A stretch of 41,326 nucleotides of DNA from a virus. Taxonomy: Duplodnaviria > Caudoviricetes. The DNA is taken from positions 1 to 41,326 of IMG/VR virus record IMGVR_UViG_3300024344_000040, one strand, 5' to 3'. Of the stretch, positions 2,730 through 32,114 are shown in pieces; the first letter of the stretch is position 1, and each line of letters starts with the position of its first letter. A program made the position numbers and the translations under genes. The notes beneath the pieces were generated by a model that saw only the letters and a list, made by a program, of their open reading frames with translations, had not been told where the DNA came from and ran no database searches.

Positions 2730-4712
2730 TTAACCTCCAGGATACATTGCTACAAATTGAGTTCTATCGGTAGTAGTAGAAAAGCCCATTTGACTATTTG
2801 TGTTATCACCTAAGAAGAACATCTTACCGTCAGATGCTTTTAAGATAGTCATGGGTAACGCACTACTATCAATATTACCGAAGTTTATTATGTCATCAAT
2901 TGTCGAATTTGTCTTGCCTATATAGGCTGTTCCTGAAGCTCTTGTATGTGACCAGGAAACTGGCATTGGAAATGCATTAGTAAAACTAGTAGCTGCTTCA
3001 TCTACCTGATGATCGTTGGTATTTAAATGATAGCCAGAAGTCCAAAGTCTACCTAAATTATCGACGAAGAAGAAAGCATTATTTGCGGCAGCAAACCTAG
3101 CAGGAAATACAGAAGTTATATCAGCCCTTGGGAATGTTAACTCAGTCTTAGTTAAGGAACCATTAGCACTTGTTACACTAACAGCTATATTTGTACCAAA
3201 CACTCCTGTTCCCGGTTGAGTCCATGCAGATAAGTTAGTAGTGTTACCTTGCATTAAGACACCACCTCCGTTATAACCTGTCATATAAATGTCACCGTTA
3301 GGAGCTCCCGGAGTACCACCAATTGCACAACCAGCGTGATAAGCACCTTGTCCAGATTGCTGCACGGAACTAAATGTGTTTGAACCTCCTACGTCGACCC
3401 ATGCCGCTCTATCTGTAGTAGAGCCATCTCCAAGCTGTCCAGCAGAATTTTCACCAATTGCGTAAAGATCGCCATCAGTCTTAAGAGCGTAGGCCACGGC
3501 GCTATATGTTGAAGAGTAGGTCCCAGAGGCACAAAGTATTTGACTTACTCCACTGACTCCACTTACCGCAGTTGGGGCTGTTCTGGTAGAACCTTCTCCC
3601 AAGCCGCTTGTATTGTTGCCTGTATAAGTCATGGCACCAGATGTATCAACAAAGTAAGTATCTCGAACACCAGCACTTATTTGAATTGTATTTGTTATAC
3701 CAGATAAGTGTGTTGGAGTTGTGACATTAGATGTGGAACCCACACCAGCTTGACCCTGAGCATTATACCCCCAAGAGTGAACTCTCTTTGAGCTATCAAT
3801 AGCAAAGCAAGTCATAAAAGGTATGCCAGTATATCCATATCCATGTGAAAAAGTAAAAGCAGATACAGTACAAGCTGTACTAGAAACAGTAGCATCAGGC
3901 CCAAGATAAGGATTACGACACCAAAGGTATCTATCTGTTGTATCTCCAAGTCCTAATTGACCATACTGATTTTCACCTCTAACAAATAAGTCTCCGTCAT
4001 TTGTAAGGAACCAAGCATTACCATCGTTATACCATATTCTTACAGGATAATCTCCAGAACGAAGCCCACCAAATTCTGTAGAGATATTAGCGTTAATTAC
4101 AGGACCACCATTATCTTCTGTAGTCCCTGCTCCATGACCGCGATAAGTGTCATAACCACGGAATACTGGTTCATGGTTAGTGTTTAAATACCAAAAGGCG
4201 ACTCCTACACTATACGCGTATTGACTGTTCCGATCTCGCTTTACTGGGCCACAAGCACCATTAGGCATACCATCATAAGGGACCCAACTATTACCATAGT
4301 CAGCAAACCAAGGATACTTACCTCCTTCACCGTGTGTTGTACCATCGTCACTATCAGCGTATAAAGGTATGTTTGTACCTAATGGTGTAAATCCCTCATA
4401 ACCAGAAGTTGACGCCCATTCAAGATCAGTAGCACCTGCTTTTAATATTTGACCAGAAGTTCCTTTTGCTAATCTTGTATTAGCTGAAGCACTTCTTGTT
4501 AGTAGATCTCCTCTTGTTGTTAGAGTATCAAGACCCTCAGCCATAACATTCCAGAATGAGGAACCATCAGCTGGTGTTTGACCGGTTCCGTTTTGGATAC
4601 ACACCCAAGAACTTCCGGTGTGGCTTACAACATCATCAACGACATATGCTGTTGATGCTCCATAAGCTCCCCTCCAATTGAACCTTATTGAACCAACATT
4701 AATTGTTCCCAT
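2730..4712 (-). CDS. RCC1-repeat beta-propeller protein, probable receptor-binding tail protein
   Basis: Repeats such as GENQYGQLGLGDTTDR, GYNAQGQAGVG and GENSAGQLGDGSTTDR; N-terminal WRGAY...YVVDDVVSHTGSSWVC module; follows tail fibre. Confidence 0.85.
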   Translation of the reverse strand: MGTINVGSIRFNWRGAYGASTAYVVDDVVSHTGSSWVCIQNGTGQTPADGSSFWNVMAEGLDTLTTRGDLLTRSASANTRLAKGTSGQILKAGATDLEWASTSGYEGFTPLGTNIPLYADSDDGTTHGEGGKYPWFADYGNSWVPYDGMPNGACGPVKRDRNSQYAYSVGVAFWYLNTNHEPVFRGYDTYRGHGAGTTEDNGGPVINANISTEFGGLRSGDYPVRIWYNDGNAWFLTNDGDLFVRGENQYGQLGLGDTTDRYLWCRNPYLGPDATVSSTACTVSAFTFSHGYGYTGIPFMTCFAIDSSKRVHSWGYNAQGQAGVGSTSNVTTPTHLSGITNTIQISAGVRDTYFVDTSGAMTYTGNNTSGLGEGSTRTAPTAVSGVSGVSQILCASGTYSSTYSAVAYALKTDGDLYAIGENSAGQLGDGSTTDRAAWVDVGGSNTFSSVQQSGQGAYHAGCAIGGTPGAPNGDIYMTGYNGGGVLMQGNTTNLSAWTQPGTGVFGTNIAVSVTSANGSLTKTELTFPRADITSVFPARFAAANNAFFFVDNLGRLWTSGYHLNTNDHQVDEAATSFTNAFPMPVSWSHTRASGTAYIGKTNSTIDDIINFGNIDSSALPMTILKASDGKMFFLGDNTNSQMGFSTTTDRTQFVAMYPGG

Positions 4713-4727
4713 CTAAACCTCCTTCAA

Positions 4728-5660
4728 CTACGGCGTCGTCATTATTAAATTAACACCGGATGTGGAAAACGTTAAACCAGTTGCTGCGGTTATTGTATCA
4801 TCGTAATCCGATAATGTAAATGATTCTGATCCGCCACCAGTTGTTACATCTACTTGTAAAATGTTTCCAGTCTTTTTGAAACCATAAAATGCAGCATTAC
4901 TAACAGCGCCTTGATTAATAGTAATTGCTTCTTTTGTACGTAACGGCGACATACCTTTAGTATTATCAGTGCCTGCCTCAGCTTCAGCTTTAGAAGCTAT
5001 AGCGGAAAAAACTGAGGGCGGTCCTGTTTCCCCAGTCGCGCCAGTAGGAATTCCCAGCGCAAGAACTCCTGTCGTGGGTGTATAGGATACAGTCGCAGAG
5101 GACCCCGCCCCCAAGGTGGTGGCAGAAACTGAAGATATTGCAGCATCTGTAGTAACAAGTGCAGTACCAGCTGCGTTATAAGCTATTTGTTTATTAGCCT
5201 GATCTGACGCCGTTTCAGCGTAAGGCCAAGTTAAAGCATCAGCTCCTAAAGCAGTGGTAACTGGAAGTTTAATTGCTCTATCAACACGTTCAGCAATTTG
5301 AGTATTGATTAAGGTTAACTTATCAAGTGCACCTTCGTGTGTAGAAGCACTAAATGGATCTCCTTCTACGTAATCTACCTCTTGAGTATTAGTAATATTC
5401 CGAACAATAACAATACGATCGTTGTTTGGAAGATTATTATTTAACGTAATAGTAGCGAACTCAGTAGAGGAGTTTATAGCCACAGCATAGTCATACGTAC
5501 CACTACCGCCTCTTGATTGAGTAGTTACCGTCCCGCTTGTTACAGCGACAGTATACACCTTTAGATCATCAACTCCTTTAACTGGCCCATTAAAGAAGAA
5601 CGTTTTGGTACTTCCTGTACCAGCACTACTACTCCGTTTTAGTTCACTAGCGACTGTCAT
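4728..5660 (-). CDS. Tail fibre/adaptor with T7 gp17-like N-terminal anchor
   Basis: TFFFNGP...DLKVY...IVIVRNI...HEGALDKLT anchor pattern; short GATGETGPP triplets; follows ejection genes. Confidence 0.8.
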   Translation of the reverse strand: MTVASELKRSSSAGTGSTKTFFFNGPVKGVDDLKVYTVAVTSGTVTTQSRGGSGTYDYAVAINSSTEFATITLNNNLPNNDRIVIVRNITNTQEVDYVEGDPFSASTHEGALDKLTLINTQIAERVDRAIKLPVTTALGADALTWPYAETASDQANKQIAYNAAGTALVTTDAAISSVSATTLGAGSSATVSYTPTTGVLALGIPTGATGETGPPSVFSAIASKAEAEAGTDNTKGMSPLRTKEAITINQGAVSNAAFYGFKKTGNILQVDVTTGGGSESFTLSDYDDTITAATGLTFSTSGVNLIMTTP

Positions 5661-8215
5661 TAACGCACTCCTTCAAATAATCTATCACCACCACCTCTTG
5701 GAATTAAATGACTTGGTGGTACACGAAATTGTTGCCCTTGTTCTCTCATTATACGGCGTTCCATCCTGCGAAGATACCCCGGATTCATAGTTTCTTGCAA
5801 TTGATATAATATTAAGTAATCTAACGCCATTCTTGTATAAAATAAATTAATAAATGGAGTATTATTAATAGCTGTTCTTAATAAATCAGCCTTAAAATCT
5901 TTACCCTGCCTGATTCTAGTGTATATATCCATCACTGTATCAAATTGTCCTAGGGTAGGACCTGCCGCCGTTGCAAGCGCTGATCTTCCATATCGCGAAT
6001 ATTCTCCAAATAAAAAGTCACCGTATATACCTAGACCACCTCCTTGACTCATAGCAGCAAAAAGCAATTTAGCATTGTGCCCCGGGTCATCTGTAAATTC
6101 TCGCGGTGTTTGTCCTCTTAAATAAGACTTTGCCGTTAATGAAGCGTATCCAAATAAGGTAGTCATAACGATTAGTTGTGATAATCCAGATATGTCTTTC
6201 TTACCATTAAGGTTACCAAATAACTCTCGAGCGACTCCTTTTCTAATCATTGTAATTGGAAAAGATTTAAACTGGAAGAAGTGTCTAAACATTTCTCCTG
6301 TCCACGTTCCTGATTGAGTACCTTGATTCATGATTGCGCGCTCAGCGGCTCCAGGCATTGGAATCCCTGAATCAGCTCTATCCATATAAAAGGTATCTAG
6401 CATACTTTCTAGATCTGTCCTTGCAATCTCTATACGACGTCTAGTTGGTTCCTTGATTCCTTTATAGCGTTTAAGATAGTCAACTATAATACCCTCAGGT
6501 ATATATTGCGCGCCTTCTGGTAACATGTGAGCATTACCATCTACCTCTGTGACCAAGTGGTTTCTAAAGATATTCCATTCAGCTTGTCCAATATCATATA
6601 ACGCCAAGACATTTTGTAGTCTCTGGCCTAGCTTATTAAAAGTTAAGTTTTTATTACTCGCTAAATTATGACTCATCATTAAAGCGACACCTGTCCTATG
6701 ACTATCGTTCCACCAAGACATAAGATTTAACTTAAAAAACTTTTGTTGACCCTTAGCCAAGGTCCCAGGGACGTGGTCAGTAGCTGCCCATCTAGATATC
6801 AAATCACCAGTCATCCCATCGAATCCTATACCTAGACTTCTAGCAATAGTCTTTTGTTCCTTATTTCCTCGGCCGCGCAATAAATTACCAAAGGCCCTTG
6901 AATATCCAACTAATGGGTGTACACCTTGAAACCTTAATTCAGCGGCTTGATTGGGAATATCTGTGAATGATGAAATTGTGGCAGCGCCTAGTCTAGCCAT
7001 ATTTTGAACAGCACGAACACCGGCGTTAATTCTTGCAAAGGTTAATTTTGCAGGTATTCTTGTAGTTCCATCTATCTCCTTAAGAGCATTTTCTAGAGCG
7101 ATATGTTTAAACTTATCAGCTTGTTTCCAGCTTAGTTCTTTTGATGCGGCTAGAGCATACTTCCTTTTTAACTTATCCATCATAGCCACTGGGTTTGTTC
7201 CTAAACCTCTCATTAAAGCGGTATTTCTAGCCATGTGCTCTAACCCGTGTATAATACCTTCTCTTAAATCTCCAGTTCCAAATTTACCGTTATACGCCAT
7301 AAAGTCACTAGATGTTCTGAAATGTAATAACCGAGGTTGACTACTCTTTTTTGCTATATTAGCAGGGCCCTTGAATCCCATGACAAAATTACTTTCATCG
7401 GCAGCATTAAATCTTTTATGAAAGCCCGAGGTCAATCCTTCATAAGCTCCTCTTAAGAATTTTTCAGGATCGGCTCCCTTAAATGTTGCTTCATGGTCAA
7501 GTTTATCAATAATAAAATTATACCAAGCCTTAAAACTTTCCTCTGGAGTTGCCTTTTTACCTCCAGCTTTTCTTAATCTAAGCATATCATGGCTCTGTCT
7601 CATGATATATCCAGGCATGTTTCTTATATACGTACCAGCTTGATTAGAGTGAGACACCGCCGTATTTTGTAGTTCATGTATGTTTTTTGCGATCCTCTCT
7701 GCAGCTGGATTTTTTGTGATACCTGGAGTACCGCCTTCTTTTATTTCCCATAATTCAGCGGCAATATCATGATCAATTTTCCCACTGTTAAACATACCTA
7801 GATCGCCATCTTTATCTACTCTATCTATTAAACGACCAATATACTTATTTGCTAAGGCTTTTCCTTGAGCGTCTATACTAAGTTTTCCTCCTTCTTCTCC
7901 ATAGACTCCTACCATAAGAGCCATTAAACCCTTCTGCTTATCTTTAAATTTATCCACTCTAGCCATAGCTTTAGTTTCAGCAATCAAATTTAAGATATTA
8001 TTTCTTTTTTCTATCGCTGCTTGTAATATTGATTCTTGAAGACGATCATCAACATACTTGCTAACTGTTGCATCTACATTAGCGTCCTGTGTTGCCTGCT
8101 TTTTTAATTGAATAAAATCGTCAATATCAGACAATAATGCCTCAGCTTGATCATCAGTAATCTTAGTATCACCGGCTGCTTTTTTAATTACATTTATACA
8201 ATCTTTAATACTCAT
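5660..8215 (-). CDS. Large internal virion (ejection) protein
   Basis: 851 aa, helical; FFQFKSFP, GGGLGIYGDFLFG and TPFINLFYTR motifs typical of epsilon15/BPP-1-like core proteins; synteny. Confidence 0.8.
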   Translation of the reverse strand: MSIKDCINVIKKAAGDTKITDDQAEALLSDIDDFIQLKKQATQDANVDATVSKYVDDRLQESILQAAIEKRNNILNLIAETKAMARVDKFKDKQKGLMALMVGVYGEEGGKLSIDAQGKALANKYIGRLIDRVDKDGDLGMFNSGKIDHDIAAELWEIKEGGTPGITKNPAAERIAKNIHELQNTAVSHSNQAGTYIRNMPGYIMRQSHDMLRLRKAGGKKATPEESFKAWYNFIIDKLDHEATFKGADPEKFLRGAYEGLTSGFHKRFNAADESNFVMGFKGPANIAKKSSQPRLLHFRTSSDFMAYNGKFGTGDLREGIIHGLEHMARNTALMRGLGTNPVAMMDKLKRKYALAASKELSWKQADKFKHIALENALKEIDGTTRIPAKLTFARINAGVRAVQNMARLGAATISSFTDIPNQAAELRFQGVHPLVGYSRAFGNLLRGRGNKEQKTIARSLGIGFDGMTGDLISRWAATDHVPGTLAKGQQKFFKLNLMSWWNDSHRTGVALMMSHNLASNKNLTFNKLGQRLQNVLALYDIGQAEWNIFRNHLVTEVDGNAHMLPEGAQYIPEGIIVDYLKRYKGIKEPTRRRIEIARTDLESMLDTFYMDRADSGIPMPGAAERAIMNQGTQSGTWTGEMFRHFFQFKSFPITMIRKGVARELFGNLNGKKDISGLSQLIVMTTLFGYASLTAKSYLRGQTPREFTDDPGHNAKLLFAAMSQGGGLGIYGDFLFGEYSRYGRSALATAAGPTLGQFDTVMDIYTRIRQGKDFKADLLRTAINNTPFINLFYTRMALDYLILYQLQETMNPGYLRRMERRIMREQGQQFRVPPSHLIPRGGGDRLFEGVR

Positions 8216-8219
8216 ATCA

Positions 8220-11200
8220 TCACCTAGTTAAACATACTGCTGCCGCTCTGGCAGCTTTTGCTAAATTCTCACTATCAATTAAATCTTTTTCATACGTTGC
8301 TGAAACTTCTTTTAAGGCGTTATCTAATTCTTTTGCTAATGCTGGCTCTATATTTGCAAGTTCAGCTTCTAAATCAGATTGAACTTGAGTTAACTCCTCA
8401 TTTTGCTTTGTAATCTCTCTCGATAATTCATGAGGTTTAAGAGCAGCATTTCTTGCAGAATCTGTTTCACCAACTAGATATTCTGCCGTATCATTAGTCC
8501 CATTACTTTTACCAGTTTCTCGATGCTTAGTAGCTAGCTTTATTGCTTCTGTTTTTGTTAGTTTAGGTGGCTCTACAAAACCCTGAGGTAACATATCCAT
8601 CACGATTATTACTTTTCCAGATTTATCAGTGCCTACATCAACAACTCTATATGTCTGGTTAGGGGGTAGTATAACTTCTGTTTCTCCAGTTCCATATTGC
8701 CAAACAGCTTTCATATCTCCTTTTGAAGTTAACATATGCGCGTTCTCAGGTAAATTTATTTTTATTGTTGGTGCTGAAGAAGATTCAAAATTTTGGGCTG
8801 ACAAATAATTAAGAGCGGTAGACATCGCTCCAGTTAATTTAACTTTTTTCCCTACCATAAGTTTTGCAGTTTCAATATCTTTAGCATTATTCATATTAAT
8901 ATCTTTACCTGCAACATTATTAAAAGCCTGATATGGAGTGTTTTGGCGCCAAACAATCATAGGTTTACGTATTCCACCAGCCTCAAGTGCTTGGTTAAAA
9001 CCCTCAACAAGGCCCTTATGGACTCGATAATATTTAGTTACTGTTTTAGTCCAGTCTATCCTATCCAATTCAAAAATCTGGGTCAGATAATCATCACCTT
9101 GGAATTGCTTGCCTATATCACTAGAAACAGAGTGAAAGTCTTTTTTCGCCTGCGTTAGTAGTTTTATCCACTCTCCTAAACTTATAAGACCAAGGGTTTT
9201 ATTATCCTTTGTCCCCGTGAGATTAGGCTCATAATAGTTGATAGCGCGAGTTATGGCATTATACGTGCCGCTAGCACCGGTAAATTTTGCTATGGCAAAT
9301 TTTGTATCTTCAGAGTACTTAGCTTTTTTCTGTAAGCTGTTTAAGATACTTTTGGCAGTTGATCCACTCATTGTAACCCAGGATAAATCAGATTCGGGAG
9401 CTGTTGCTTCAAACTGGTCGGGATACTGAGAAGATAAAGCATCTCGGCGTAATTTCATAAAAGCCTTTAAATCTTGAGCATCATTAACTCCAGACATTGC
9501 GATGAGTTTATCTATCATCTCAGGAGAAACCTTAAATATTGCTTCTGCCGCCTCGCTTTCTAAGTCAGTCATTCGTTGGGCCCCAAGACTCTCTTTTACG
9601 TGTGAGTATACAACGTGTCCATTAGGGTTGCTAGTCTTACCAGTTAATTGGCCCATATTAAATTCTAGACCTTCAGGAAGAGGAGATTTTTTCTTTCCTT
9701 GAGCTCGATAATATAGTGAAGCACCGGGATCGATTCTAACGACTGATCCATCTTTAAGTTGCATCATATTAAAATTTGGAGGATTTCCTACCCAATCGTA
9801 GTTTGCTAACATAACATCAACTAAGTGGCCTCGCCAAAAGTCTTCTAGAACTTTTTTAGGTAAATCTTTAAAATCTTGAGGTGTAATAGTTTTTGCCTCT
9901 TGCAGTTTACTACTAGCAATACCAACAATCTTCTTATTTTGGTGGACAAGTTTATAGTGCGGCATTGGAACACCGAACGCTCTATAAAGTTGAGATGCAA
10001 GCCATTCACTTCGAGCAAGATCTCCAGAAATAGCTCCACTACGCGCGTCTATGGGTTTCTGGTGGTGTTTAAGCAAAGCTAAAACGGCTTCATCTTTAGC
10101 CTTTTGATTAACCGCGTTTCTTAAAAAAGGTGATCTTGGATTATCTAAGCTGTGACCAGAAAGACTCTTTGTTTCTCTTAAATTATCTGGAAAATGCTTT
10201 GTGATTTCTGAGTATGATAAATCACTTTTTCCTATAAAAAATTGGGTATATCGACCACCGGCACCCGCGTGAAAGTATCCGGGAAGAGTAGATTCAATAT
10301 TATATTGATCAGCATCGATCCCCATCTCCTCTTGAACTTCTCTCATAGCGGCCATTTCTGGAGTTTCTCCAGGATTAGCCTGACCTTTTGCATACGTTGT
10401 CTGATACCCGCCAAACCCATCTTCTAGTGAGTCTCGAGCAGGTTTTGGCTGTCTTAAAACAACTTGATTATCTCGTGTTATTATAATAACGCCGTAAGCT
10501 AATTCCTGATTACCTGGATCAGTACTATGTACCTTACCGTAAAGTTTTTTCCAACCTGAAGGATATTGGTTATCAACAAGATCTTTAGGAAACTTAACAT
10601 AATATTCATCTCCAGTCGCCTTATCAATGTGATACCCTCCTGGATGACTTCCACTCGGTTGTCTTCTTGGATTTCCTGAGGGATGGAGATTTTCTATATT
10701 TAGAGCCGTATCAATTTGTTCAACAGCAAAGTCATCGCCTAAAAATGAATTATCCGGAGTCTCGTATGCTTTTTTAAGTTGTGTTCCTTTAATTAAAGGA
10801 CTGAACGCCGCTTTTTCCTCGTTATCGAGAATTGAAAAAGCCTTTGTGGGTTGTGTAAGCTGTACATCTGCTTGATTCATTTGAGAATCAAATCTAACAT
10901 TTTCAGCAGAGATTACATGAACCGATGATTTTTGAGCTTGATTTACATTTGTTCCAACATACGTAAAATTAGCATCAGAAGCATCTAATCCTTTCATAGC
11001 TAGAGCAGGAATTAGTTTTATCACATCTCCTTCTAGTGTTGGAGCTCCATTTCTATTTACAGATAGTCCTATGCCTGCTTCTGAAGTAGCATCAAATAAT
11101 TTAAGAACTCCCGCTTTATTCCTCACTAAGATTGTTCTAAGACCTGAATCAGTCTCAATACGTAAAGCTATTCTTTGTTTATATTTAGATTTTTGAGCAC

Positions 11201-12521
11201 CATTAACGGCGTTAAGTAACTCTTCACTATTTAGTGCTCGCGTGATGTTGTTTTTAAAGTTAGATGTCTTTTCTTTATTAGTAACGAGTCTATCTATTAA
11301 GGTTAAACTTTGATCAATATTCTCATGAGGAATAAACTGTTCTGAGGCGTCTAGCCTAGTTGGACCAATATTAGAATCACCTTGATGCACGCCAACTGGT
11401 GCTTCAACTTCTGCCTGTCTGGCCTCGTGCACTATAGGTGCAGCGCCATCAACATCATTTATTGGAGTCTCTACTTGAGGTTCAAATTCTCCGTGTGTTA
11501 TAGGAGAAACCTCAATGTCTTCTCCGTTCATTGCCTGTTTTACAGCTGTGTCAATTGCCTTAGCGTGTCGTTTTCGAGATATACTTCTCATCATAGGACT
11601 TACTACTCCAGAACCTATGGTGTGTAACCCTCCTCCTAAGACTCCTCCAAAAGCAATATTAACAATCGAGTCAAGAGCGGTATAGTTACTTTGAGAGTGG
11701 TGAGCAGAAGCTAATATCAAGGGCTCGATAGAAGCAGCTCCATACATTCCAGATAATGTTCCTCTGATGGCAGATGAGCCTACTCGACTTCCTTGAACTC
11801 CAACAATTCCTGCTAATCTTGCAGCTCCAATAGGAGGGATAATAGCAGATACTGTTAGACCAATAGGATCGACTATAGCCGTCGCCATTTCTAAACCAAA
11901 GCCTTTCCACCAATGCGCGCCTGTTGCTCTATTTAAAGTAAACTCATAATCTATCTCTTCTTGTTTTCTATGGTGTAAAAAGAAAGCCTCAAGATTTGAG
12001 ATATTTTCTGTAAATTTTAAGTCACCTACTTTCCAGCGAGCGTTAGCTTCTTCTGCGGTTAATATTTTTGTAGGATCTTCATCACCAAAACCAGGATATC
12101 TTTCTTTTATTTGTTGAGGAGCAAATGGTAAACTGTGCTCAACTTCCCACTGAATTCGTTCTCTAGTTCCAGTAAATGGTTGAGCCTCTGGATATACTTC
12201 CTCTCTAAATTGAGAAATAGGTTTGTCATTTTTTTTACCGTATCCACCGGCTATAATACTTGCAGGACTACCAGGACTTTCTGGATTAGTACCATATTTT
12301 TCATAAGCTAATCTTGAAACTTCTCGCTGCTGATCAGTAGCCTCAACAAATTGTCTAATCTCATCTATTTCATTAAAGTATTCTAATCCGCCGTATCCCG
12401 TATATCTCCAACCACGGGTAGTAGCAGCATCCCAAATTTCAGTTGACGATGTTTGTAATTGAAATAAACCTAAACTAGTAGACGTCTGGCTAGGTTTTTG
12501 ATTTTTAAGACCTATATCCAT
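8220..12521 (-). CDS. Polyvalent internal virion protein: kinase-like + Nudix + ADP-ribosyltransferase
   Basis: Gly/Ala-rich hydrophobic N-terminal core-protein segment and AAAVCLTR C-terminus; exact Nudix box at 10317-10385; YVK...E...D...N...IDPG kinase motifs; WR...ST...ETE ART motifs. Confidence 0.85.
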   Translation of the reverse strand: MDIGLKNQKPSQTSTSLGLFQLQTSSTEIWDAATTRGWRYTGYGGLEYFNEIDEIRQFVEATDQQREVSRLAYEKYGTNPESPGSPASIIAGGYGKKNDKPISQFREEVYPEAQPFTGTRERIQWEVEHSLPFAPQQIKERYPGFGDEDPTKILTAEEANARWKVGDLKFTENISNLEAFFLHHRKQEEIDYEFTLNRATGAHWWKGFGLEMATAIVDPIGLTVSAIIPPIGAARLAGIVGVQGSRVGSSAIRGTLSGMYGAASIEPLILASAHHSQSNYTALDSIVNIAFGGVLGGGLHTIGSGVVSPMMRSISRKRHAKAIDTAVKQAMNGEDIEVSPITHGEFEPQVETPINDVDGAAPIVHEARQAEVEAPVGVHQGDSNIGPTRLDASEQFIPHENIDQSLTLIDRLVTNKEKTSNFKNNITRALNSEELLNAVNGAQKSKYKQRIALRIETDSGLRTILVRNKAGVLKLFDATSEAGIGLSVNRNGAPTLEGDVIKLIPALAMKGLDASDANFTYVGTNVNQAQKSSVHVISAENVRFDSQMNQADVQLTQPTKAFSILDNEEKAAFSPLIKGTQLKKAYETPDNSFLGDDFAVEQIDTALNIENLHPSGNPRRQPSGSHPGGYHIDKATGDEYYVKFPKDLVDNQYPSGWKKLYGKVHSTDPGNQELAYGVIIITRDNQVVLRQPKPARDSLEDGFGGYQTTYAKGQANPGETPEMAAMREVQEEMGIDADQYNIESTLPGYFHAGAGGRYTQFFIGKSDLSYSEITKHFPDNLRETKSLSGHSLDNPRSPFLRNAVNQKAKDEAVLALLKHHQKPIDARSGAISGDLARSEWLASQLYRAFGVPMPHYKLVHQNKKIVGIASSKLQEAKTITPQDFKDLPKKVLEDFWRGHLVDVMLANYDWVGNPPNFNMMQLKDGSVVRIDPGASLYYRAQGKKKSPLPEGLEFNMGQLTGKTSNPNGHVVYSHVKESLGAQRMTDLESEAAEAIFKVSPEMIDKLIAMSGVNDAQDLKAFMKLRRDALSSQYPDQFEATAPESDLSWVTMSGSTAKSILNSLQKKAKYSEDTKFAIAKFTGASGTYNAITRAINYYEPNLTGTKDNKTLGLISLGEWIKLLTQAKKDFHSVSSDIGKQFQGDDYLTQIFELDRIDWTKTVTKYYRVHKGLVEGFNQALEAGGIRKPMIVWRQNTPYQAFNNVAGKDINMNNAKDIETAKLMVGKKVKLTGAMSTALNYLSAQNFESSSAPTIKINLPENAHMLTSKGDMKAVWQYGTGETEVILPPNQTYRVVDVGTDKSGKVIIVMDMLPQGFVEPPKLTKTEAIKLATKHRETGKSNGTNDTAEYLVGETDSARNAALKPHELSREITKQNEELTQVQSDLEAELANIEPALAKELDNALKEVSATYEKDLIDSENLAKAARAAAVCLTR

Positions 12522-12523
12522 TG

Positions 12524-15469
12524 TTAGTTCTTTTCAGCTCCAGGTGTTACACCAGACTCCGGTACTCTATCACTAAAAAGCCCAATAAATGATTCCCAAA
12601 TTGTACCGTCATGAGCACTTAGAAGACTCATTGGGATCATAAACGGCATTGACTCGTCACCGGTGTCCATAGTATATTGTAGTTCTAAAGGAACAAATTG
12701 ACCTAGATTATCTTTATATCCAACAAGGTATTGATCATCGTGCTCAGAACTTGTTTTTAGTACGATATTTTCTTTTATGCTTTCAAGAGCAATAGCGTTT
12801 CCTACGTCTGCGGTAAGTAACGCTAGCGTCGCGCCTCCGGGAAGTTTAATTTGAACGTTTTCATAAGGTAAGCCAGATTTGAATTTTGCTGCAGCTAAGT
12901 TAGGTGTCTTACCTTGCATAAAACCACCAGCGACTAGATTATCCCTAAATATATCAGGAAGATCTGTGTTTCCCCTAATAATCAGTTCAAATAGGCCTGC
13001 CAGATCTTCTTTGTCCAAGTCTTTAAAATTTTTAACAAAAGTTTCAGCATTCCCATGCACAGTTTCGGGATTGATTCGAACAGGTTCTTTTAGTTTTGTA
13101 TAATAACTAGTGTTCTCGTCCGTTGTCCAACCGTAACTAATCATAACATTTCTTGGAATGAGCGTAGATACTCTACCGTCGTCTGATCTTTGAGTATACA
13201 AGATTTTATGAAGAGCTCCAGCAAAAGTTGTAGCTGCCTCAGCTGGACCTGGGAGGGAGCTCCACGATCCTATCGTACCTGGTTTGCTATTTGTTCCAAA
13301 AATTTGTTCTGCGTCTTTTTCAAAATCGTCACCTTTGCCGCGATTCATTGCTAGTGCAAAAGATATAGCGGCTCGGTATAGTTGAGATTCTACTTCGGCA
13401 GCTATATTAATATCATCATTATGTAACGTTCTAGCAAAATCTCTGATCCACTCGTGGTTTTCCTGGACCATAGCTTCAGCTTTTTTATATGTGGCTTGCG
13501 AATTAGTATCTGTTCCTACATTAATGCCATTTAACTCTTTTTTCATAAGCTCATCATTTTGAGAAAGTAGAGCAGCATTTGCTAACATGACTCTCCCAAT
13601 TTGACTTGCTGGATCTGTTGCCTTAATATCAGCAAGGGCTAAAGTAAAAAAACCAAGCCCAACATTATCGTGTTCTGACATAGTTGCATAGACCAAACTA
13701 TCAAACTCGTTCCCCGTAAGCTCTTGAAGAGCATCAAGGCGCTGAAGAAATTGTTCACCATTTTTTGCTGTTTTAAATAAATTTGCTACATTACTAGTCC
13801 AGACTTTTGGAAAGCGAAATGGTATATTTAGTTCTTTAGAACCTTGTTTTAACCTAAGTAACGTCTCCCCAAAATCTTCTATTTTTAACGCACGCAACTT
13901 TGGGTTTTCTTCATTAGCAACATCTGATAAGACTGCAGTGATATCTCTATGTGCAAATGACCGACCATTTCTTATAGAATTATTCTCTAGACTTTGAAGA
14001 ACCATACCCCCAGGATCAGTAGTCATCATTGTATTAATTTGTTTTATGGTTGGCATTATAGTGCGTACAACGGCTTGGGCATCTGCCGTTGTCATAACAG
14101 CTAATAGTTCATAGCCATTGTGATGATCTGTGTATCTATCTAGATTCATCTTTTTTATTGGTTTATCTGGATAAGGCCACTTTTCCCATCCGCCAATACC
14201 TGCAGCACTAAAACTAGTAACCTTTGTTTCCTTATTGGGTGGGGATGGAGCATAGTTTTGAAGCATACCCTTTAGATAAGTGGCACCTTGATGGCCACCA
14301 TCTAGATACTTAAGAAGAGATAGAATCTGTTCTCGGCGTTCTTTACTTCCGGTTAAATATTCATCTTTTATATAACCTGAAAGTTTTGCTATACGTATTT
14401 TTGCATTTTCCTCGTTTCTATAAATGGCTCGTCTTTCTTCATCTTGCTTAGTTACTCCAGGATAAACCTGCTCAGCGGCATCAGCAACCATACTTGTAGT
14501 CATCGTTTCTACTGTACCAACCGCAGGATCAATAAGTCTTGTTTGCTGGGTGACAAAATTATTCATCGTTTTGTCATGATCGTCTTTAGCAATTATTGAT
14601 CCAACCCTAGCTTCATTAACGGCTCTAGATCGAAAAGCCTCTATTTTTTCTGCAGGCATACTAAGAGACTTTAGGAAAGCGCTACCCGGCTGAAGCATAT
14701 TAACTACTTCATGAGGGTCTCTTGCTAGCATTCCAGATAAGAAAGATACCTCAGCTGCTTCAGTTTGTCTCTGTAGTTCTTCTTCTAAGATAGCAGGAGG
14801 TAATGTTATCGCGTAATCTATCTCACCTTGTTTTTTATCTTCAAGAATCCCTAGACTATTTTTAAATGTTTCCTTAATATTTTGTTTTAGTTCAGCAAAT
14901 TCATCTACGTCAGTTATGTCTCCTGCCCGAACCTCATATTTTTCTCCAATTTCTCGAAGGTCTAAAAGTTTTAGTTTAATGCGCTCCCTGCCCTCGTATT
15001 CAACAGCATTTTTTAATCCAGTTCTAAGAAGTTTATCCCACTGAGTTCTATAATATTTTTCGACGTATTTATTTCCTGGAAGTGCTTTTTTAGCAGCTGC
15101 CATAGATGCTTCTAGCTCGTTAGTGTGTATACCTCTAACTTGTGAGTTGTAACCAGTTACGCTTTTTGTAGCAGCAACAGTTCTAAATTCGTCTGAATCG
15201 TGTCGTTCTTTTGCATTTACAGTAGCTAGAGTAATATTATTTACAGAGTCTGGTATACGCTTTTGAACCCAAAGATGTGCTGCTTCTTTTGCTTGTCTCT
15301 CTTGTTCATCTAATACATCTTTACCTGCCTGCCATAAGCCTTGTCCAAGGTTTTGTCCACCGGTATTTGTAATAGCACTTATATCAGATTCAGAGGCGAT
15401 AGATCGACGGAAACCAACATCTTTCATTTGTTGCTTTGCCTGTTCCGCGTATGTCGTAATTTTTACCAT
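12524..15469 (-). CDS. Internal virion (ejection) protein, gp15-like position
   Basis: 981 aa, helical; MVKITTY start; lies between the gp14-like gene and other core genes. Confidence 0.7.
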   Translation of the reverse strand: MVKITTYAEQAKQQMKDVGFRRSIASESDISAITNTGGQNLGQGLWQAGKDVLDEQERQAKEAAHLWVQKRIPDSVNNITLATVNAKERHDSDEFRTVAATKSVTGYNSQVRGIHTNELEASMAAAKKALPGNKYVEKYYRTQWDKLLRTGLKNAVEYEGRERIKLKLLDLREIGEKYEVRAGDITDVDEFAELKQNIKETFKNSLGILEDKKQGEIDYAITLPPAILEEELQRQTEAAEVSFLSGMLARDPHEVVNMLQPGSAFLKSLSMPAEKIEAFRSRAVNEARVGSIIAKDDHDKTMNNFVTQQTRLIDPAVGTVETMTTSMVADAAEQVYPGVTKQDEERRAIYRNEENAKIRIAKLSGYIKDEYLTGSKERREQILSLLKYLDGGHQGATYLKGMLQNYAPSPPNKETKVTSFSAAGIGGWEKWPYPDKPIKKMNLDRYTDHHNGYELLAVMTTADAQAVVRTIMPTIKQINTMMTTDPGGMVLQSLENNSIRNGRSFAHRDITAVLSDVANEENPKLRALKIEDFGETLLRLKQGSKELNIPFRFPKVWTSNVANLFKTAKNGEQFLQRLDALQELTGNEFDSLVYATMSEHDNVGLGFFTLALADIKATDPASQIGRVMLANAALLSQNDELMKKELNGINVGTDTNSQATYKKAEAMVQENHEWIRDFARTLHNDDINIAAEVESQLYRAAISFALAMNRGKGDDFEKDAEQIFGTNSKPGTIGSWSSLPGPAEAATTFAGALHKILYTQRSDDGRVSTLIPRNVMISYGWTTDENTSYYTKLKEPVRINPETVHGNAETFVKNFKDLDKEDLAGLFELIIRGNTDLPDIFRDNLVAGGFMQGKTPNLAAAKFKSGLPYENVQIKLPGGATLALLTADVGNAIALESIKENIVLKTSSEHDDQYLVGYKDNLGQFVPLELQYTMDTGDESMPFMIPMSLLSAHDGTIWESFIGLFSDRVPESGVTPGAEKN

Positions 15470-15478
15470 TTCTTACTC

Positions 15479-15940
15479 CTATTGCACTTTTAGTGCGTCG
15501 CCCTGCGTACTCTTATAGTATTGTCCACCAGCCTTAAAGCCTGTAGAAAGAGCAGACATATACCCGGCTTTTTGCTTGCTTTTTCCCTTCATTGTTTCTA
15601 ATCGTCCACGTCCTCTATAATCAGCTGCTTCAATAGCTCCTTCATACATAATAGTTAAACGATCTATCTCTCCCTCTATCACATCATTCATCCGGACATC
15701 TAACGCTGATCCGGTATCAGAGACAACTCCCGAAGCCCCATAGCCTGCACGTTGCTTTCCTAACGCCCGTCGTAAACGTCTTTGCTGTTTATCTGCATCA
15801 TACCTAGCTTTTTCTTCTCTGAACTGGGCGTTTTGTTCCATTAATTGAGCGTTATACCGATGCATGGCATTAGCGGCTCTACCTTGCTGAATCGAACTAA
15901 CAGCAGAAAACGCTGCTCCTATCGCCATCATAACTGCCAT
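15479..15940 (-). CDS. Internal virion protein, gp14-like
   Basis: Ala-rich hydrophobic N-terminus, GKQRAGYGASGV and GSALDV motifs; synteny. Confidence 0.8.
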   Translation of the reverse strand: MAVMMAIGAAFSAVSSIQQGRAANAMHRYNAQLMEQNAQFREEKARYDADKQQRRLRRALGKQRAGYGASGVVSDTGSALDVRMNDVIEGEIDRLTIMYEGAIEAADYRGRGRLETMKGKSKQKAGYMSALSTGFKAGGQYYKSTQGDALKVQ

Positions 15941-23342: not shown

Positions 23343-23579
23343 TTATACGCCAGTTCCTGACCCAAGAAGTTTTTGCTTCTTGATATCTTCCATTGCAATA
23401 CCCTCACCCCCAGTCAAAATAGTTGATGCGTATCCTTTACGGTCTTTAGTCGCGGCTAATTTCTTCTCAGCCGTTTCCGTGGCTGCAGCAGCCGTTGGTG
23501 CTGGAAAACTAATTTGAGGAACAGGCGGTGGTTTTGGTGCTCTGAATATACTTGTAATTGCCCTGAATACTTTACCCAT
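23343..23579 (-). CDS. Small virion/assembly protein
   Basis: Pro/Ala-rich, RKGYASTILTG...KLLG motif typical of the gene before the portal. Confidence 0.75.
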   Translation of the reverse strand: MGKVFRAITSIFRAPKPPPVPQISFPAPTAAAATETAEKKLAATKDRKGYASTILTGGEGIAMEDIKKQKLLGSGTGV

Positions 23580-24024
23580 AACTTATCTCCTTTTTAAACG
23601 AATACCCAGAAATATCATAACCCATAATCTGATGTAAACGAATACTATTATCAACTTTTTTACCGCTGTGTATAGAACTATGCATATCTTTTGCACCTTT
23701 TGACTTTGCCCACTTTTCAAAATCCTTAAATATACGAACAGCAGCGAATGCATTAATAGCATAAAAATGATCTATATGCACCCCTACTCTATCAGAAATA
23801 GTATACTCCGTAAATCCTCCAAGGTACATCGCCATTATTGTTTCACCATCGTCGCGCAATACGATACGTCCAAATGTATCCTCCATTGAGATATATTGAT
23901 CTAAAACGTCAGTTAATTTATCAATATTAATTTTAGCTTCAAAAAAGGGAGAATCATTCCACTGGTCCTGGACAAATGGAACTAGTTTAGGATAATCGTC
24001 TTTTGTTAAATCTCTAATATGCAT
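23572..24024 (-). CDS. GNAT-fold acetyltransferase-like protein
   Basis: MHIRDLTKDD start (ATG at 24024 preferred), FEKWAKSKGA and LHQIMGY GNAT-like motifs. Confidence 0.7.
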   Translation of the reverse strand: MHIRDLTKDDYPKLVPFVQDQWNDSPFFEAKINIDKLTDVLDQYISMEDTFGRIVLRDDGETIMAMYLGGFTEYTISDRVGVHIDHFYAINAFAAVRIFKDFEKWAKSKGAKDMHSSIHSGKKVDNSIRLHQIMGYDISGYSFKKEISYG

Positions 24025-25315
24025 TGAAGATATGATAATCACCTTCAGCCATTCTAGGTAAATTAGCCCTCTGTTTATTTAAACGATCTCGAACACCAAG
24101 AGCCATATATCTCATAGCATCTGCCGGATGACTAGTCCAATCATGAAGTGGTCGATCCCTAAATGTCTTATTTTTTTCATCAAAATCTTTTCGATACTGT
24201 CTTAAGGCTTCTATAAGGTGGGAACACTTATCTTCGTCTATATAACAACGAGGTAAAATAGACCTTACAGCCTCTATGCCATCCTCTACTCTTAGATTAG
24301 GAAGGACCCTATATCGTATTCCTAACTCACGGGCAACCTCTAAGCGAGACTTACCGGTACTAAAATCTCTAACTTTTATATCGTGAGGAGCAAGATGTTC
24401 ACCGTAGACGTATTCTTTTTCTCTGACTGTCTTAATATAGTGGGCTATTCCTTCGCCCTGATTTTCATAATAGTCTATTATTCTGATCTCATTTCCATGT
24501 AACTGGAAGAATATAATGACAGTAGAGTCCCCCACACCTAGGTCCCAAGAGGTATGTACATCTAAAAGGGGATCATAGGGCACTTTTGTAATATGTCTAT
24601 CAGCAAGTAACCTAGCCATAGCGTTACCATAATACGATCCTACTAATGGTGCATCAAAAGAACAATAAAATTCTTGTTGTATCATCTCCTCAGGCATACC
24701 AGCAGCGCGTTCTTCATCTATTGCTTCTATAGAAATAGCCCGAGTATCTTCAATACTTAAGACTTGTTGGAACCAAGTCTCATTCTTTTTAGCTATATTA
24801 AGTAATTCATATCCGTGATTTCGACCTCTAGCGGTATAAATAAATACCGCCCATCCTCCATTTTCAGCCAAGATGGGACGAATGTAATCCCAGGCCCTTG
24901 GGTCTTGAAGAGCGTACTCAGAAAAAATAACTCCGACGGGGTTAGCTCCCACAAGTCTGTCAACATTATCGGTACCGACAATCTGATAGATTGAGCCATT
25001 CTTTAAAGTAAGCCGCATTTCTGTATTATTAACAGCGGTCCATGTTTCTTCAGGGAAGTGTTCAAGGAATTTTCGTCCATCACGTGTCATTCCATCCCAA
25101 GCTATTTTTCTCCCCTGGTTATATGTGGGAAATAGGTGCCAATATAGTCCGGGTCGCTGTAATGCAGAAACCACGCACCAATTTACCATACTTAAATCTT
25201 TACCAGCTCGGCGATGCCAAACACAAACTGCTCTTTTACCGCCGTTTTCTAAAAACTTCCACAACGGTAACTGGTAAGATCTAGGTGTCCAATCAACCGG
25301 AACCTGAATTGCCAT
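24014..25315 (-). CDS. terL: Terminase large subunit
   Basis: PRSYQ, WHRRAGKD Walker A, VIFSE Walker B, WDLG nuclease and SHPADAMRY; ATG at 25315 preferred. Confidence 0.95.
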   Translation of the reverse strand: MAIQVPVDWTPRSYQLPLWKFLENGGKRAVCVWHRRAGKDLSMVNWCVVSALQRPGLYWHLFPTYNQGRKIAWDGMTRDGRKFLEHFPEETWTAVNNTEMRLTLKNGSIYQIVGTDNVDRLVGANPVGVIFSEYALQDPRAWDYIRPILAENGGWAVFIYTARGRNHGYELLNIAKKNETWFQQVLSIEDTRAISIEAIDEERAAGMPEEMIQQEFYCSFDAPLVGSYYGNAMARLLADRHITKVPYDPLLDVHTSWDLGVGDSTVIIFFQLHGNEIRIIDYYENQGEGIAHYIKTVREKEYVYGEHLAPHDIKVRDFSTGKSRLEVARELGIRYRVLPNLRVEDGIEAVRSILPRCYIDEDKCSHLIEALRQYRKDFDEKNKTFRDRPLHDWTSHPADAMRYMALGVRDRLNKQRANLPRMAEGDYHIFNAY

Positions 25316-29668: not shown

Positions 29669-29898
29669 TGAAGACAACTTTCACTTTTGTGAAAGCCTCA
29701 CATAATCGGGATGGTCTGGCTCGTCAGGGTCAGGCCATTCTGAACATTGTTGAGGCAAAACAATCTATTTCGAAAGAAGAATTACTAGAACAGATAGTTC
29801 TCGATGTTAAGAGTAAGCAGAAAGCAACACGTTTACTTTCATACTACAAGGGGATCTTAGTATCTCGAGGATATATAGAGGAGAAACGACATGGCTAA
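29668..29898 (+). CDS. Small winged-helix-like protein, paralogue of the C-terminus of 27896-28420
   Basis: LARQGQAIL...SKQKATRLLSYYKGILVSRGYI; TAATG coupling. Confidence 0.6.
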   Translation: MKTTFTFVKASHNRDGLARQGQAILNIVEAKQSISKEELLEQIVLDVKSKQKATRLLSYYKGILVSRGYIEEKRHG

Positions 29899-30733
29899 CG
29901 CCAAAGGAAGTAAGATTGATAAGACTCACTTATCAGTTGATGCTGCGGAGGAACGAGGTTTCCTTCACAGAGATTACATTGCCCACTGTTTAAGGTGGAC
30001 ACACGTTGTTAAATGGTTAAACCAAAGTGCTAGGTATAAGACAGCACGAATACTAGATGTCGGCTCTGGGAAAGAACTTCCCCTAGCTAAATTGCTTCAT
30101 AGCAGTCGAATGGCACCAGCTTGGTATGGTGCAGTTGATGTAGCTGCACTAACGACACCTGAACAATTTAGAAATTCCAAGTGGAAACCTGATGTCTTAT
30201 TCAGTAAGACAGACGTTTGTGATCTACAAGAAAGTGACTTGCCAGCTCGACCTAACGTGATTGTTTGTTTTGAGGTGCTTGAACATGTCGAACCAGACCA
30301 TTGTAGACGAATCCTTTCAAGTTTTATCCGCCATCTGGACAGTGGAGGCACTGCATTTGTCAGTACTCCTTGTTGGGATCCTGACGTGGGTGCTGCTGCA
30401 AATCATGTCAATGAAATGACTTACCACGCTTTTGGTGCTGCATTAGAAGATTCAGGGTTCTCGATTAAAGGACATTGGGGAACCTTTGCTTCAATGAAGG
30501 ACTATAAAGATCACTTATCAGAGTCACAAAGAGAGGTGTGGGAAGACTTAAGAGGTTATTATGATACTAACTATCTCGCAACTATCATGGCTCCATTAGT
30601 TCCTCAACATAGTCGTAATTGTTTATGGCAGCTAGAAGCGCCTCCAACCCCTGAACCACGATACTTCCCGGGTCTTCGAGATATTCCTGAACGATGGGGA
30701 AGTTCTGAGATATGGGAGAAGTTACAACCATGA
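29891..30733 (+). CDS. Class I SAM-dependent methyltransferase (small-molecule/O-methyltransferase type)
   Basis: ILDVGSG motif I, VCFEVLEHV, FVSTP; no DPPY/NPPY or C5-type PC plus ENV motifs. Confidence 0.88.
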   Translation: MANAKGSKIDKTHLSVDAAEERGFLHRDYIAHCLRWTHVVKWLNQSARYKTARILDVGSGKELPLAKLLHSSRMAPAWYGAVDVAALTTPEQFRNSKWKPDVLFSKTDVCDLQESDLPARPNVIVCFEVLEHVEPDHCRRILSSFIRHLDSGGTAFVSTPCWDPDVGAAANHVNEMTYHAFGAALEDSGFSIKGHWGTFASMKDYKDHLSESQREVWEDLRGYYDTNYLATIMAPLVPQHSRNCLWQLEAPPTPEPRYFPGLRDIPERWGSSEIWEKLQP

Positions 30734-31107
30734 GTATGATACGCGATATAAAAGAGTTTCATGAAAAGTTCAACTTGACCTATGAAGGAGGTCCTAGAGA
30801 GTTACCCGTAGAGTTAGACATCTTTAGGACTAACTTTATTCAAGAAGAACTAGATGAATATATCGATAGCAGCAATCTTGAGCATAAATTTGATGCTCTT
30901 ATTGATATGGTTTATGTAATTCTTGGAACTGCATATATGCATGGTTTTGATTTTGAAGAGGGATGGAAGAGAGTTCACGAGGCAAACATGACAAAAATTA
31001 GACAACCATCTGAAAGATCAGGTTTTGATGTGGTTAAACCTGATGGATGGAAAGCTCCTGATTTAGGTGATCTTGTTGTGGCGCCTCTTCCTTTATTTGA
31101 TGAATGA
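30730..31107 (+). CDS. MazG-like all-alpha NTP pyrophosphatase
   Basis: EELDEY, DALIDMVYV, VHEANMTK and KPDGW motifs; ATGA overlap with the methyltransferase. Confidence 0.9.
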   Translation: MSMIRDIKEFHEKFNLTYEGGPRELPVELDIFRTNFIQEELDEYIDSSNLEHKFDALIDMVYVILGTAYMHGFDFEEGWKRVHEANMTKIRQPSERSGFDVVKPDGWKAPDLGDLVVAPLPLFDE

Positions 31108-32114
31108 TATATATAGTCGACGGTCCTGACGGATCAGGAAAAACAACTCTCGCTCGTGAACTGGTTGAAAAGATAGGTGGAAGGTATATCCATCTAACTT
31201 ACCGGTTTAAAGAAAGAATATTTGATTACCACACTGCCGCGATAAGGTTGGCTGCCAGAAGTAAAGTTCCGATTGTTATAGATCGGTGGTGGCCAACCGA
31301 AGCAATATACGCTAAAGCATATCGTGGAGGAAGTACTTGGCCGATGCAGGGTAGACTAGCAGATAGGATTGCTAGGAAGTTTGGAGCAATATATATCTAT
31401 TGTTTACCTTCATCAGTTAACTCTGGTGTTGCAATGTTTAACAAGTTGAAAGAAGAAAGAGAAGAAATGTACGAAGACATTCAAGATGTAATAGACTTAT
31501 ACATCAAGTTGTGGGATGGTCATCTAGAACACGAAGATAAGGGTCAGTATATAGACTTTCTTATTCGTAATGGTGGATTAAAAGATAGGCCAGATCATAG
31601 ATACTATAACATTGGACATTGGGGTCATGCAAAAGATCTTTTTTGTGAACGAGTAATTGAACAATCATATGTTTGGAGAGGACTACAATATGAACCCGCT
31701 TTGGATTTTAATGAGTGGAACGTTACTGGTCATCTTTGTGGGAGTAGTTATTTGTTTGTAGGTGATCAAGCTAATCCAAAATTTAGAGAACTGTCTTGGC
31801 CTTTTTATGAATATGGTAATAGCAGCTTATACCTAACAGAACTTCTTCATCGTCTAAACTTTAAAGAAGATGCTGCAATGTGGTGTAATGCGTACAATGT
31901 GGATGGTTCTATGAATAGACATATACAAGGTATTGTATCAAGGAACCCTAAGATTAAGGTTATTACACTAGGAGAAAGAGCTCAAGAGGTCTGTGATAAA
32001 AATTCAATACAGACTCACGCAAATGTTTGGCATCCTTCTTATGCTAAGCGTTTTAATAAGAAAGAAGAATATGAAGATCAAATAACGGAGGCATTAAAGC
32101 ATGAGTTGTGTTAA
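31104..32114 (+). CDS. dNMP (thymidylate-type) kinase fused to a uracil-DNA-glycosylase-fold domain
   Basis: GPDGSGKTT and IDRWW in the N-half; LFVGDQAN, PF, WCNA, VITLGERA and HPSY in the C-half. Confidence 0.8.
   Translation: MIYIVDGPDGSGKTTLARELVEKIGGRYIHLTYRFKERIFDYHTAAIRLAARSKVPIVIDRWWPTEAIYAKAYRGGSTWPMQGRLADRIARKFGAIYIYCLPSSVNSGVAMFNKLKEEREEMYEDIQDVIDLYIKLWDGHLEHEDKGQYIDFLIRNGGLKDRPDHRYYNIGHWGHAKDLFCERVIEQSYVWRGLQYEPALDFNEWNVTGHLCGSSYLFVGDQANPKFRELSWPFYEYGNSSLYLTELLHRLNFKEDAAMWCNAYNVDGSMNRHIQGIVSRNPKIKVITLGERAQEVCDKNSIQTHANVWHPSYAKRFNKKEEYEDQITEALKHELC

Follow-up and report, generated by a model that had tools for sequence, protein, structure and literature searches.

Injected ADP-ribosyltransferases (ARTs), Nudix hydrolases fused to head proteins, polyvalent proteins and internal virion proteins (IVPs) that bear cargo have already been described (PMC5512222, PMC9503650, PMC7824862, PMC4819975). 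Here, we explored a gene for a protein of 1433 amino acids (aa) in the 41,326-base record of an uncultured podovirus (IMG/VR IMGVR_UViG_3300024344_000040; the whole record is the window referred to below). This protein is likely a DNA-injection (ejection) protein of the epsilon15 gp16 type and is predicted to unite three enzymes, kinase, ART and Nudix hydrolase, in one chain. Its main novelty lies in the kinase-ART module, which has no family name, and in the Nudix domain nested within the kinase.

The closest described counterparts of the carrier are the cargo-bearing IVPs of podoviruses. In Hardies 2016 (PMC4819975), epsilon15 gp15 and gp16 are assigned to IVP-C and gp17 to IVP-D, and IVPs are reported to host domains bound for the cytoplasm. 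The IVPs treated there, namely, epsilon15 gp16, N4 vRNAP gp50 and H66 gp60, resemble the 1433-aa protein in slot and conserved ends. The cargo reported for such proteins consists of a lysozyme, an RNA polymerase or a methylase and is mostly found on IVP-D, whereas the protein studied here carries kinase, ART and Nudix on a gp16-type chain. A 2022 review (PMC8954989) reports that the epsilon15 internal proteins are ejected into a tail-like apparatus. Phage polyvalent proteins, as presented in the main text of Iyer 2017 (PMC5512222), are likewise large, multidomain conflict proteins, presumably virion-delivered, with ARTs and kinases; in the broad sense, the 1433-aa protein belongs with this class, to which an earlier sequence-only reading of the window had pointed, in that it joins at least 2 conflict enzymes in one polypeptide and its cargo is variable. 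By contrast, the kinases treated in that text lack the C-terminal subdomain and the ARTs are of the H-Y-D type, whereas the kinase described here has a full CtkA-like C-lobe, modelled as helical, and the ART is R-S-ExE. In T4 Alt and in the Alt/VIP2 ARTs fused to MuF or portal proteins, R-S-E ART and Nudix are head-linked, and injection has been proposed; the carriers there are head proteins, as opposed to a podovirus ejection protein (Iyer 2022, PMC9503650, searched text and supplement). The same searched portions mention no CtkA-like kinase partner and place Nudix in under 1% of non-myoviruses. Our full-text literature search yielded no description of a gp16-type protein with such cargo, nor of the kinase family or its association with ART and Nudix, the external architecture files of Iyer 2017, subscription papers and bioRxiv supplements, which may list it, being outside its scope.

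Kinase and ADP-ribosyltransferase

All the kinase motifs proposed by the sequence-only reading are present, namely, G624/G628, YYVK643, E839, N907-Y-D909, N918 and R929-I-D931-P-G, and they include every one of the catalytic Lys, Glu, Asp, Asn and Asp residues (K643, E839, D909, N918 and D931). The domain stays under the Pfam cut-offs (PF07804, 12.7 versus 30.5; PF20613 (HipA_2), 13.4-16.4 versus 27) and has no NCBIfam match. The fold check by AlphaFold2 and Foldseek pointed to a CtkA-type kinase: for a model of residues 385-1050, built from 11 sequences, CtkA is the best match (Foldseek E 4.5e-4; VIA Z 16.0, with 48,161 chains searched) and, upon realignment, superimposes over 222 residues on both sides of the Nudix insert (Z 17.6, root-mean-square deviation 3.4), followed at Z 12-14 by MavQ, HipT, PI4KII, CotH and HipA. 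We thus predict a kinase of the CtkA/HipA/PI3K-like superfamily with both lobes present, the fold of which, in the model, still closes despite the insert. With CtkA, HipA and HipT it shares the fold (Z 17.6, 12.2 and 13.1, respectively) and the K-E-D-N-D catalytic set, but it is only 13-17% identical to them, scores below the Pfam thresholds, is split by the Nudix domain and has no His in its N-[WY]-D loop, from which the Asn is spaced further; no antitoxin was seen. In the ESM Atlas, the kinase matches only clusters without names, with PI3_PI4_kinase found in 12% of the members of one neighbour cluster.

Across 15 aligned orthologues, the catalytic residues show little or no variation, and D909 and D931 are kept in 163 and 164, respectively, of 172 kinase domains. 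The ratio of nonsynonymous to synonymous substitution rates (dN/dS) of the kinase is 0.03-0.10 in all 7 pairs of relatives. Because the 16 ejection-protein kinases group on one branch side of a 150-row FastTree phylogeny (support 93; two unrelated long branches fall inside), their distribution is consistent with a single acquisition. The kinase fold additionally has matches among the proteins of halophilic archaeal tailed viruses (BFVD R4T6E8 and L7TJZ0).

The ART, which had been placed at about 8600-9300 from sequence and assigned to the ExE/Arg type, was recovered at ~8556-9389, with the motifs R1192, S1234-T-A and E1280-T-E1282. Pfam ADPrib_exo_Tox (PF03496) matches residues 1172-1306 with 30.8 bits, above the cut-off of 23.4, and the family profile retrieves VIP2 at E 8e-29. 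The structural model (predicted local distance difference test score (pLDDT) 72.4) has its fold matches at Z 20-21, among them C3stau2 (Z 20.7), Certhrax and VIP2 (Z 20.3), so that, on the modelled fold, the domain is an R-S-E (ARTC) transferase of the VIP2/C3/Alt type with an ExE catalytic motif. The ExE motif is a signature of Arg-specific transferases, and, as read from this motif, the ART would modify Arg. Its dN/dS is 0.03-0.19 in 5 of 7 pairs of relatives, the other 2 being saturated.

A further domain, missed by the sequence-only reading, was modelled ahead of the kinase, at residues ~390-600. The fold-match lists of the 385-1050 model are filled by the kinase, and the ESM Atlas holds no usable match for this mid domain. 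A ParM match at residues 380-466 (14.6-16.7 bits versus 27.4) was taken as chance, and identity with a 160-aa orphan protein of a cultured-phage cassette (see below) was rejected, given that the sequences do not match.

Family distribution and the nested Nudix domain

Residues 600-1330, a query that favours multi-domain matches, were searched against 1.84 billion representatives, and the best 150 of 1,341 matches were examined; all counts of representatives (15 in the family, 135 outside it) refer to this set. In addition, a kinase-motif scan over about two-thirds of IMG/VR gave 603 matches, 483 of them confirmed, and 80 loci were kept. The conserved N-terminal core (N-core) is shared by 14 representatives; together with the query, 15/15 have kinase and ART and 2/15 have Nudix. 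Nineteen of the 80 loci belong to the ejection-protein family, with identical gene order as far as the contigs reach; kinase and ART are encoded in 19/19 and Nudix in a single one. There is overlap between these loci and the representatives, and not every locus is independent. Judging from these sequences, kinase plus ART is the conserved unit of the family.

The exact Nudix box GX5EX7REUXEEXGU that had been pointed out earlier is indeed there, at residues 713-735 (0/20,000 shuffles gave one), and Pfam NUDIX (PF00293) matches residues 675-744 with 33.8 bits, above the cut-off of 21.1; all Nudix subfamily models score far under their cut-offs (NudE, 29.4 versus 169). In 31 homologues, only 10-19 aa lie between the catalytic Lys and the alphaC Glu, as opposed to 196 aa in the 1433-aa protein, and Nudix at the same position inside the kinase was found in none of 149 other representatives or 80 loci. 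In the only other family member with this domain (P0023/L019), Nudix is placed in the mid domain instead. In four runs labelled as subsurface, hydrothermal-vent and marine metagenomes that were compared over the gene (X1, which may be the source, and X2, X3 and X4, from three other studies), the C-side junction of the insert is bridged by contigs of X2, X3 and X4 and the N-side junction by those of X4, and no contig among those runs skips the insert. In addition, each junction is covered by 97-99% variants. Given this bridging in other studies, the insertion is no assembly artefact, and a chimera was rejected.

Nudix is missing from 13/15 family representatives and 18/19 syntenic loci, and PF00293 was found in 1/16 related records and in 0/10 of those at least 90% complete. 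The two ejection-protein Nudix domains fall in different clades of kinase-associated phage Nudix in a quick tree of 75 domains, and their single origin was rejected by the approximately unbiased (AU) test (p 0.0003) on 24 of the 75 domains, a subset picked after the first tree in which P0001 forms a long branch. These phylogenies show, at the level of sequence, that Nudix was gained twice independently within the ejection-protein clade, out of one shared pool of kinase-associated phage Nudix domains. Since it was gained twice yet is missing from near-complete relatives, we conclude that Nudix is repeatedly useful, although not required. The sequence-only reading had suggested that the ART writes ADP-ribose which the Nudix enzyme trims; as an obligatory, core function this is unsupported, because Nudix is rare in the family and was gained twice independently. 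We also rejected Nudix as a required sanitiser of deoxynucleoside triphosphates for modified DNA, as 10/10 Nudix-less relatives have a thymidylate-synthase-like gene; this idea is further weakened by the separate PRA-PH/MazG-like gene in the record.

Nor is the three-enzyme combination unique, as the sequence-only reading had cautiously allowed: in 18 of the 135 non-family matches, a single chain combines kinase, ART and Nudix (Nudix and ART together are confirmed by Pfam in 16), alongside 51 with kinase and Nudix, 24 with kinase and ART, 41 with kinase alone and 1 with Nudix alone, the narrow ART profile used here undercounting ARTs. Six three-enzyme chains have MuF (P0050, P0109), minor capsid protein 2 (P0138), Acb1 (P0081, P0161) or WGR partners, Acb1 being directed against the cyclic-oligonucleotide-based antiphage signalling system (anti-CBASS). 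In P0081, P0161 and P0140, the kinase-Nudix-ART chain is fused to the Acb1 or WGR domain. Furthermore, Nudix is encoded in the same or a nearby gene in 21/61 non-family kinase loci. Thus exposed is a phage kinase family without a Pfam or NCBIfam model, with 483 confirmed matches in the two-thirds or so of IMG/VR that were scanned; its companions are ARTs, Nudix domains and, in some cases, anti-CBASS Acb1.

Among cultured phages, fHe-Yen8-01, Mecenats66 and Dolphis have adjacent genes for a kinase-ART, a conserved 160-aa orphan and Nudix; in the fHe-Yen8-01 record, the kinase-ART gp129, the orphan and the Nudix gp131 are annotated 'particle associated'. As in the 1433-aa protein, a kinase of the same family is fused to a VIP2-type ART, but these are 86-94 kb phages without the ejection-protein N-core, and their Nudix, encoded two genes downstream, is free-standing and of another clade. 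A term search of the Mecenats66 paper found no mention of the three genes. In Sixama, kinase and ART lie next to MuF and portal genes. Because cultured phages on harmless hosts, such as Dolphis (gp117/gp119; P. putida) and Sixama (gp73/gp75; G. terrae), carry the kinase family, the targets of injected phage kinases and ARTs in the first minutes are directly testable. The orphan (L084:8740-9219, L085:8724-9212, L086:8737-9240), one copy of which was scanned without a Pfam match, could be a chaperone or an immunity protein.

Carrier, proposed mechanism and alternatives

The assignment of the carrier as a likely gp16-type ejection protein is based on its slot, its ends and its relatives. As had been noticed from the sequence, the gene lies among core-protein genes, with verified IVP-B and IVP-D homologues on its two sides, and the N-terminal region is Gly/Ala-rich and hydrophobic: the G+A fraction is 0.30 at residues 200-310 versus 0.17 for the whole protein, and the Kyte-Doolittle 19-mer maximum, at residue 224, is 1.68. 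The N-core (residues 140-345) has 22 matches in 50,697 phage records, the annotated ones being mostly 'putative internal virion protein' of HTVC010P-type pelagiphages. Homologous slot-mates in cultured phages are HTVC035P gp48 and Ab31 ORF15 (E 1e-10; phrog_3003), and the N-core homologues of HTVC035P, Ab31 and a Manatee Spring phage are 489-579 aa proteins in the same slot. When compared to 10 proteins, the N-core profile ranks Tyrion gp17 (E 1.3e-5) and epsilon15 gp16 (E 1.5e-3) as the top 2, weakly. The C-terminus is conserved in sequence among orthologues, and the terminal Ala-rich Cys motif is alike in the 1433-aa protein, epsilon15 gp16 and Tyrion gp17. A whole-protein homologue search gave 3 matches among 7,993 candidates, a locus scan with a single N-core sequence gave 4 matches of which 0 were confirmed, and neither the N-core nor the 851-aa neighbour has a sequence match in the PDB. 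Cargo swapping, which the sequence-only reading suggested looking for in orthologues, is evident, the same slot bearing ddrB-ParB in P0003, P0004 and P0210 and ddrB-ParB plus Zeta kinase in P0205. The same N-core with other long cargo, including a 2087-aa stretch, recurs in P0003, P0004, P0201, P0205 and P0210.

We consider it probable that this is a virion-delivered ejection protein, the kinase and ART of which modify host proteins before phage expression, with an accessory Nudix that destroys signals; the slot, the conserved ends, the three folds or motifs, the intact catalytic residues, purifying selection in relatives and carrier swapping all argue for this scenario. Packaging, cytoplasmic passage, Ser/Thr kinase and Arg-ART activity and signal destruction by Nudix are what we infer from these observations. 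The N-core and C-core would retain the conduit role of an epsilon15-gp16-type protein and be packaged. The hydrophobic N-core might then be anchored in the inner membrane and the cargo refold in the cytoplasm, as ATP and NAD are available nowhere else. There, the kinase would phosphorylate Ser/Thr and the ExE ART would ADP-ribosylate Arg of host proteins, most likely components of transcription, translation or defence, and the separately acquired Nudix would serve in clean-up, likely destroying ADP-ribose, NAD-derived or dinucleotide signals. If active, such cargo would probably equip the phage for the chemical modification of host proteins as soon as infection starts. A 41-kb podovirus would, then, be able to use a component of its DNA-ejection apparatus as an effector platform, which has mostly been regarded as a speciality of myoviruses and MuF phages. 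The early host-takeover or anti-defence package envisaged from the sequence thus stands in part: virion delivery appears likely, given the 'particle associated' homologue of fHe-Yen8-01, and the role may be anti-defence or general takeover.

Several points weigh against this scenario. A 1433-aa chain has to cross the tail unfolded. The 'particle associated' annotation is a GenBank note, and epsilon15 gp16 itself is matched weakly (E 1.5e-3; hhalign probability 3%). The kinase-Nudix model has a mean pLDDT of 65.5 and a predicted template-modelling score of 0.45, with the Nudix part mostly of low confidence; dN/dS was measured on Nudix-free relatives rather than on the 1433-aa gene; the catalytic loop lacks the His of the HipA and PI3K motif; and lipid kinases score nearly as high as protein kinases (MavQ, Z 14.4; PI4KIIalpha, Z 12.9).

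The last point bears on the possibility that the enzyme phosphorylates lipids or small molecules, rather than proteins, at the inner membrane by the ejection conduit. The PI3_PI4_kinase members of the Atlas neighbour cluster and the hydrophobic segments of the carrier fit this view as well, but the protein kinases CtkA (Z 17.6) and HipT/HipA are the top matches and the same kinase also occurs stand-alone and on non-membrane carriers, so that we regard it as quite unlikely. Most Gram-negative bacteria are, besides, not known to contain phosphoinositides. The least probable alternative is that the insertion killed the kinase in the analysed lineage, leaving an ART-Nudix effector on a kinase scaffold: although an insert of 185 aa parts the catalytic Lys from the alphaC Glu and the model is of low confidence around the junctions, the catalytic residues are all kept, the branch length is ordinary, the fold aligns across the insert, and the spacer in this loop is lengthened, to 16 and 19 aa, in two orthologues as well.

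That the enzymes act late, in the cell which produces the virions, in order to shut off the host, exclude superinfection or modify parts of the virion, with fusion to a late structural gene mainly providing timing rather than delivery, is unlikely. It accords with the place of the gene in the late structural operon, and action against immunity that targets packaging components has been offered for head-linked ARTs in the searched part of Iyer 2022 (PMC9503650). However, the cargo is repeatedly fused in-frame to unrelated packaged carriers (ejection protein, MuF, minor capsid) where a free late gene would suffice, and a homologue is annotated as particle-associated. Coupled ART-Nudix chemistry, whereby ADP-ribose is first written on a target and then cut back to phosphoribose, or else the ADP-ribose released by NAD cleavage is destroyed, could explain the presence of both enzymes in one chain, the two independent Nudix gains (AU p 0.0003), the ADP-sugar hydrolases such as NudE and NUDT5 among the best PDB and NCBIfam matches of the Nudix domain, and the 21/61 non-family kinase loci with Nudix close by. 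We deem it very unlikely nonetheless, given that Nudix is encoded in 0/10 near-complete relatives whose ART is intact, that every subfamily score is far under its cut-off, and that in 51/135 non-family matches kinase and Nudix come with no ART detected by the narrow, undercounting profile.

Beyond the favoured scenario of virion-delivered effectors with an accessory Nudix, a bolder version deserves mention as a minority possibility: kinase plus ART, with or without Nudix, might constitute an undescribed, widespread 'minute-zero' anti-defence module that unrelated phages attach to any protein they happen to inject; in the phage of this record, Nudix in the beta3-alphaC loop, which controls the activity of the kinase, would switch the kinase on by binding or cleaving an immune signal of the NAD/ADP-ribose type. 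If so, the nested Nudix would make one chain a sense-and-strike device.

Feature map and neighbouring genes

The minus strand of the window carries the head-tail block of a podovirus and the plus strand the replication genes. In the major capsid protein, it shares 47-59% identity with HTVC010P-type pelagiphages and with one uncultured podovirus. The neighbours of the ejection-protein gene encode tail tubular B, a gp14-like IVP (phrog_418), a 981-aa protein and an 851-aa virion protein (phrog_684).

Table. Features of the ejection-protein gene and its neighbours, in positions of the window
Feature	Coordinates	Strand	Description
Whole gene	8220..12521	-	1433 aa; likely ejection (internal virion) protein in the epsilon15-gp16 slot, carrying predicted enzymatic cargo
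N-core, conserved (aa 140-345)	11487..12104	-	Gly/Ala-rich hydrophobic segments; phrog_3003, also phrog_342
Alpha/beta 'mid' domain (aa ~385-600)	10722..11369	-	common to most kinase-ART orthologues; site of the second, independent Nudix insertion of P0023/L019
Kinase N-lobe, first part (aa 606-645)	10587..10706	-	Gly-rich loop G624/G628, YVK643
Nudix hydrolase insertion (aa ~646-834)	10020..10586	-	in kinase beta3-alphaC loop; Nudix box 10317-10385
Kinase alphaC and C-lobe (aa 835-1040)	9402..10019	-	E839, D902, N907/D909, N918, D931
VIP2/C3/Alt-type ADP-ribosyltransferase (aa 1045-1322)	8556..9389	-	R1192, S1234, E1280/E1282
C-core, conserved	8223..8504	-	ends AAxxC; terminal Cys motif also in epsilon15 gp16 and Tyrion gp17
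851-aa IVP-D / epsilon15 gp17 homologue, downstream	5660..8215	-	E 2.7e-30 to gp17
981-aa gene, upstream, epsilon15 gp15 slot	12524..15469	-	slot assigned from position only
gp14-like / IVP-B internal virion protein	15479..15940	-	phrog_418, E 5.9e-30

The 981-aa product in the gp15 slot is longer than most of its syntenic relatives (range 729-981 aa) and has no family match; it may carry cargo as well. A GNAT acetyltransferase gene lies close to the portal gene (23572-24042, minus strand), and the IVP-A-slot gene of L014, L016 and L020 weakly matches it. The tail fibre (2730-4712, minus strand) has RCC1-like repeats and a CBM5/12-like N-terminus, and some relatives have other fibres at this position. 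Finally, positions 29891-33328 on the plus strand encode an S-adenosylmethionine methyltransferase, the PRA-PH/MazG-like pyrophosphatase, a nucleoside monophosphate kinase with a second domain, the thymidylate-synthase-like protein, which is present in 10/10 near-complete relatives and has CMP 5-hydroxymethylase as its best PDB match (E 5.5e-18), and a dCMP deaminase, together forming a probable cytosine-modification cluster.

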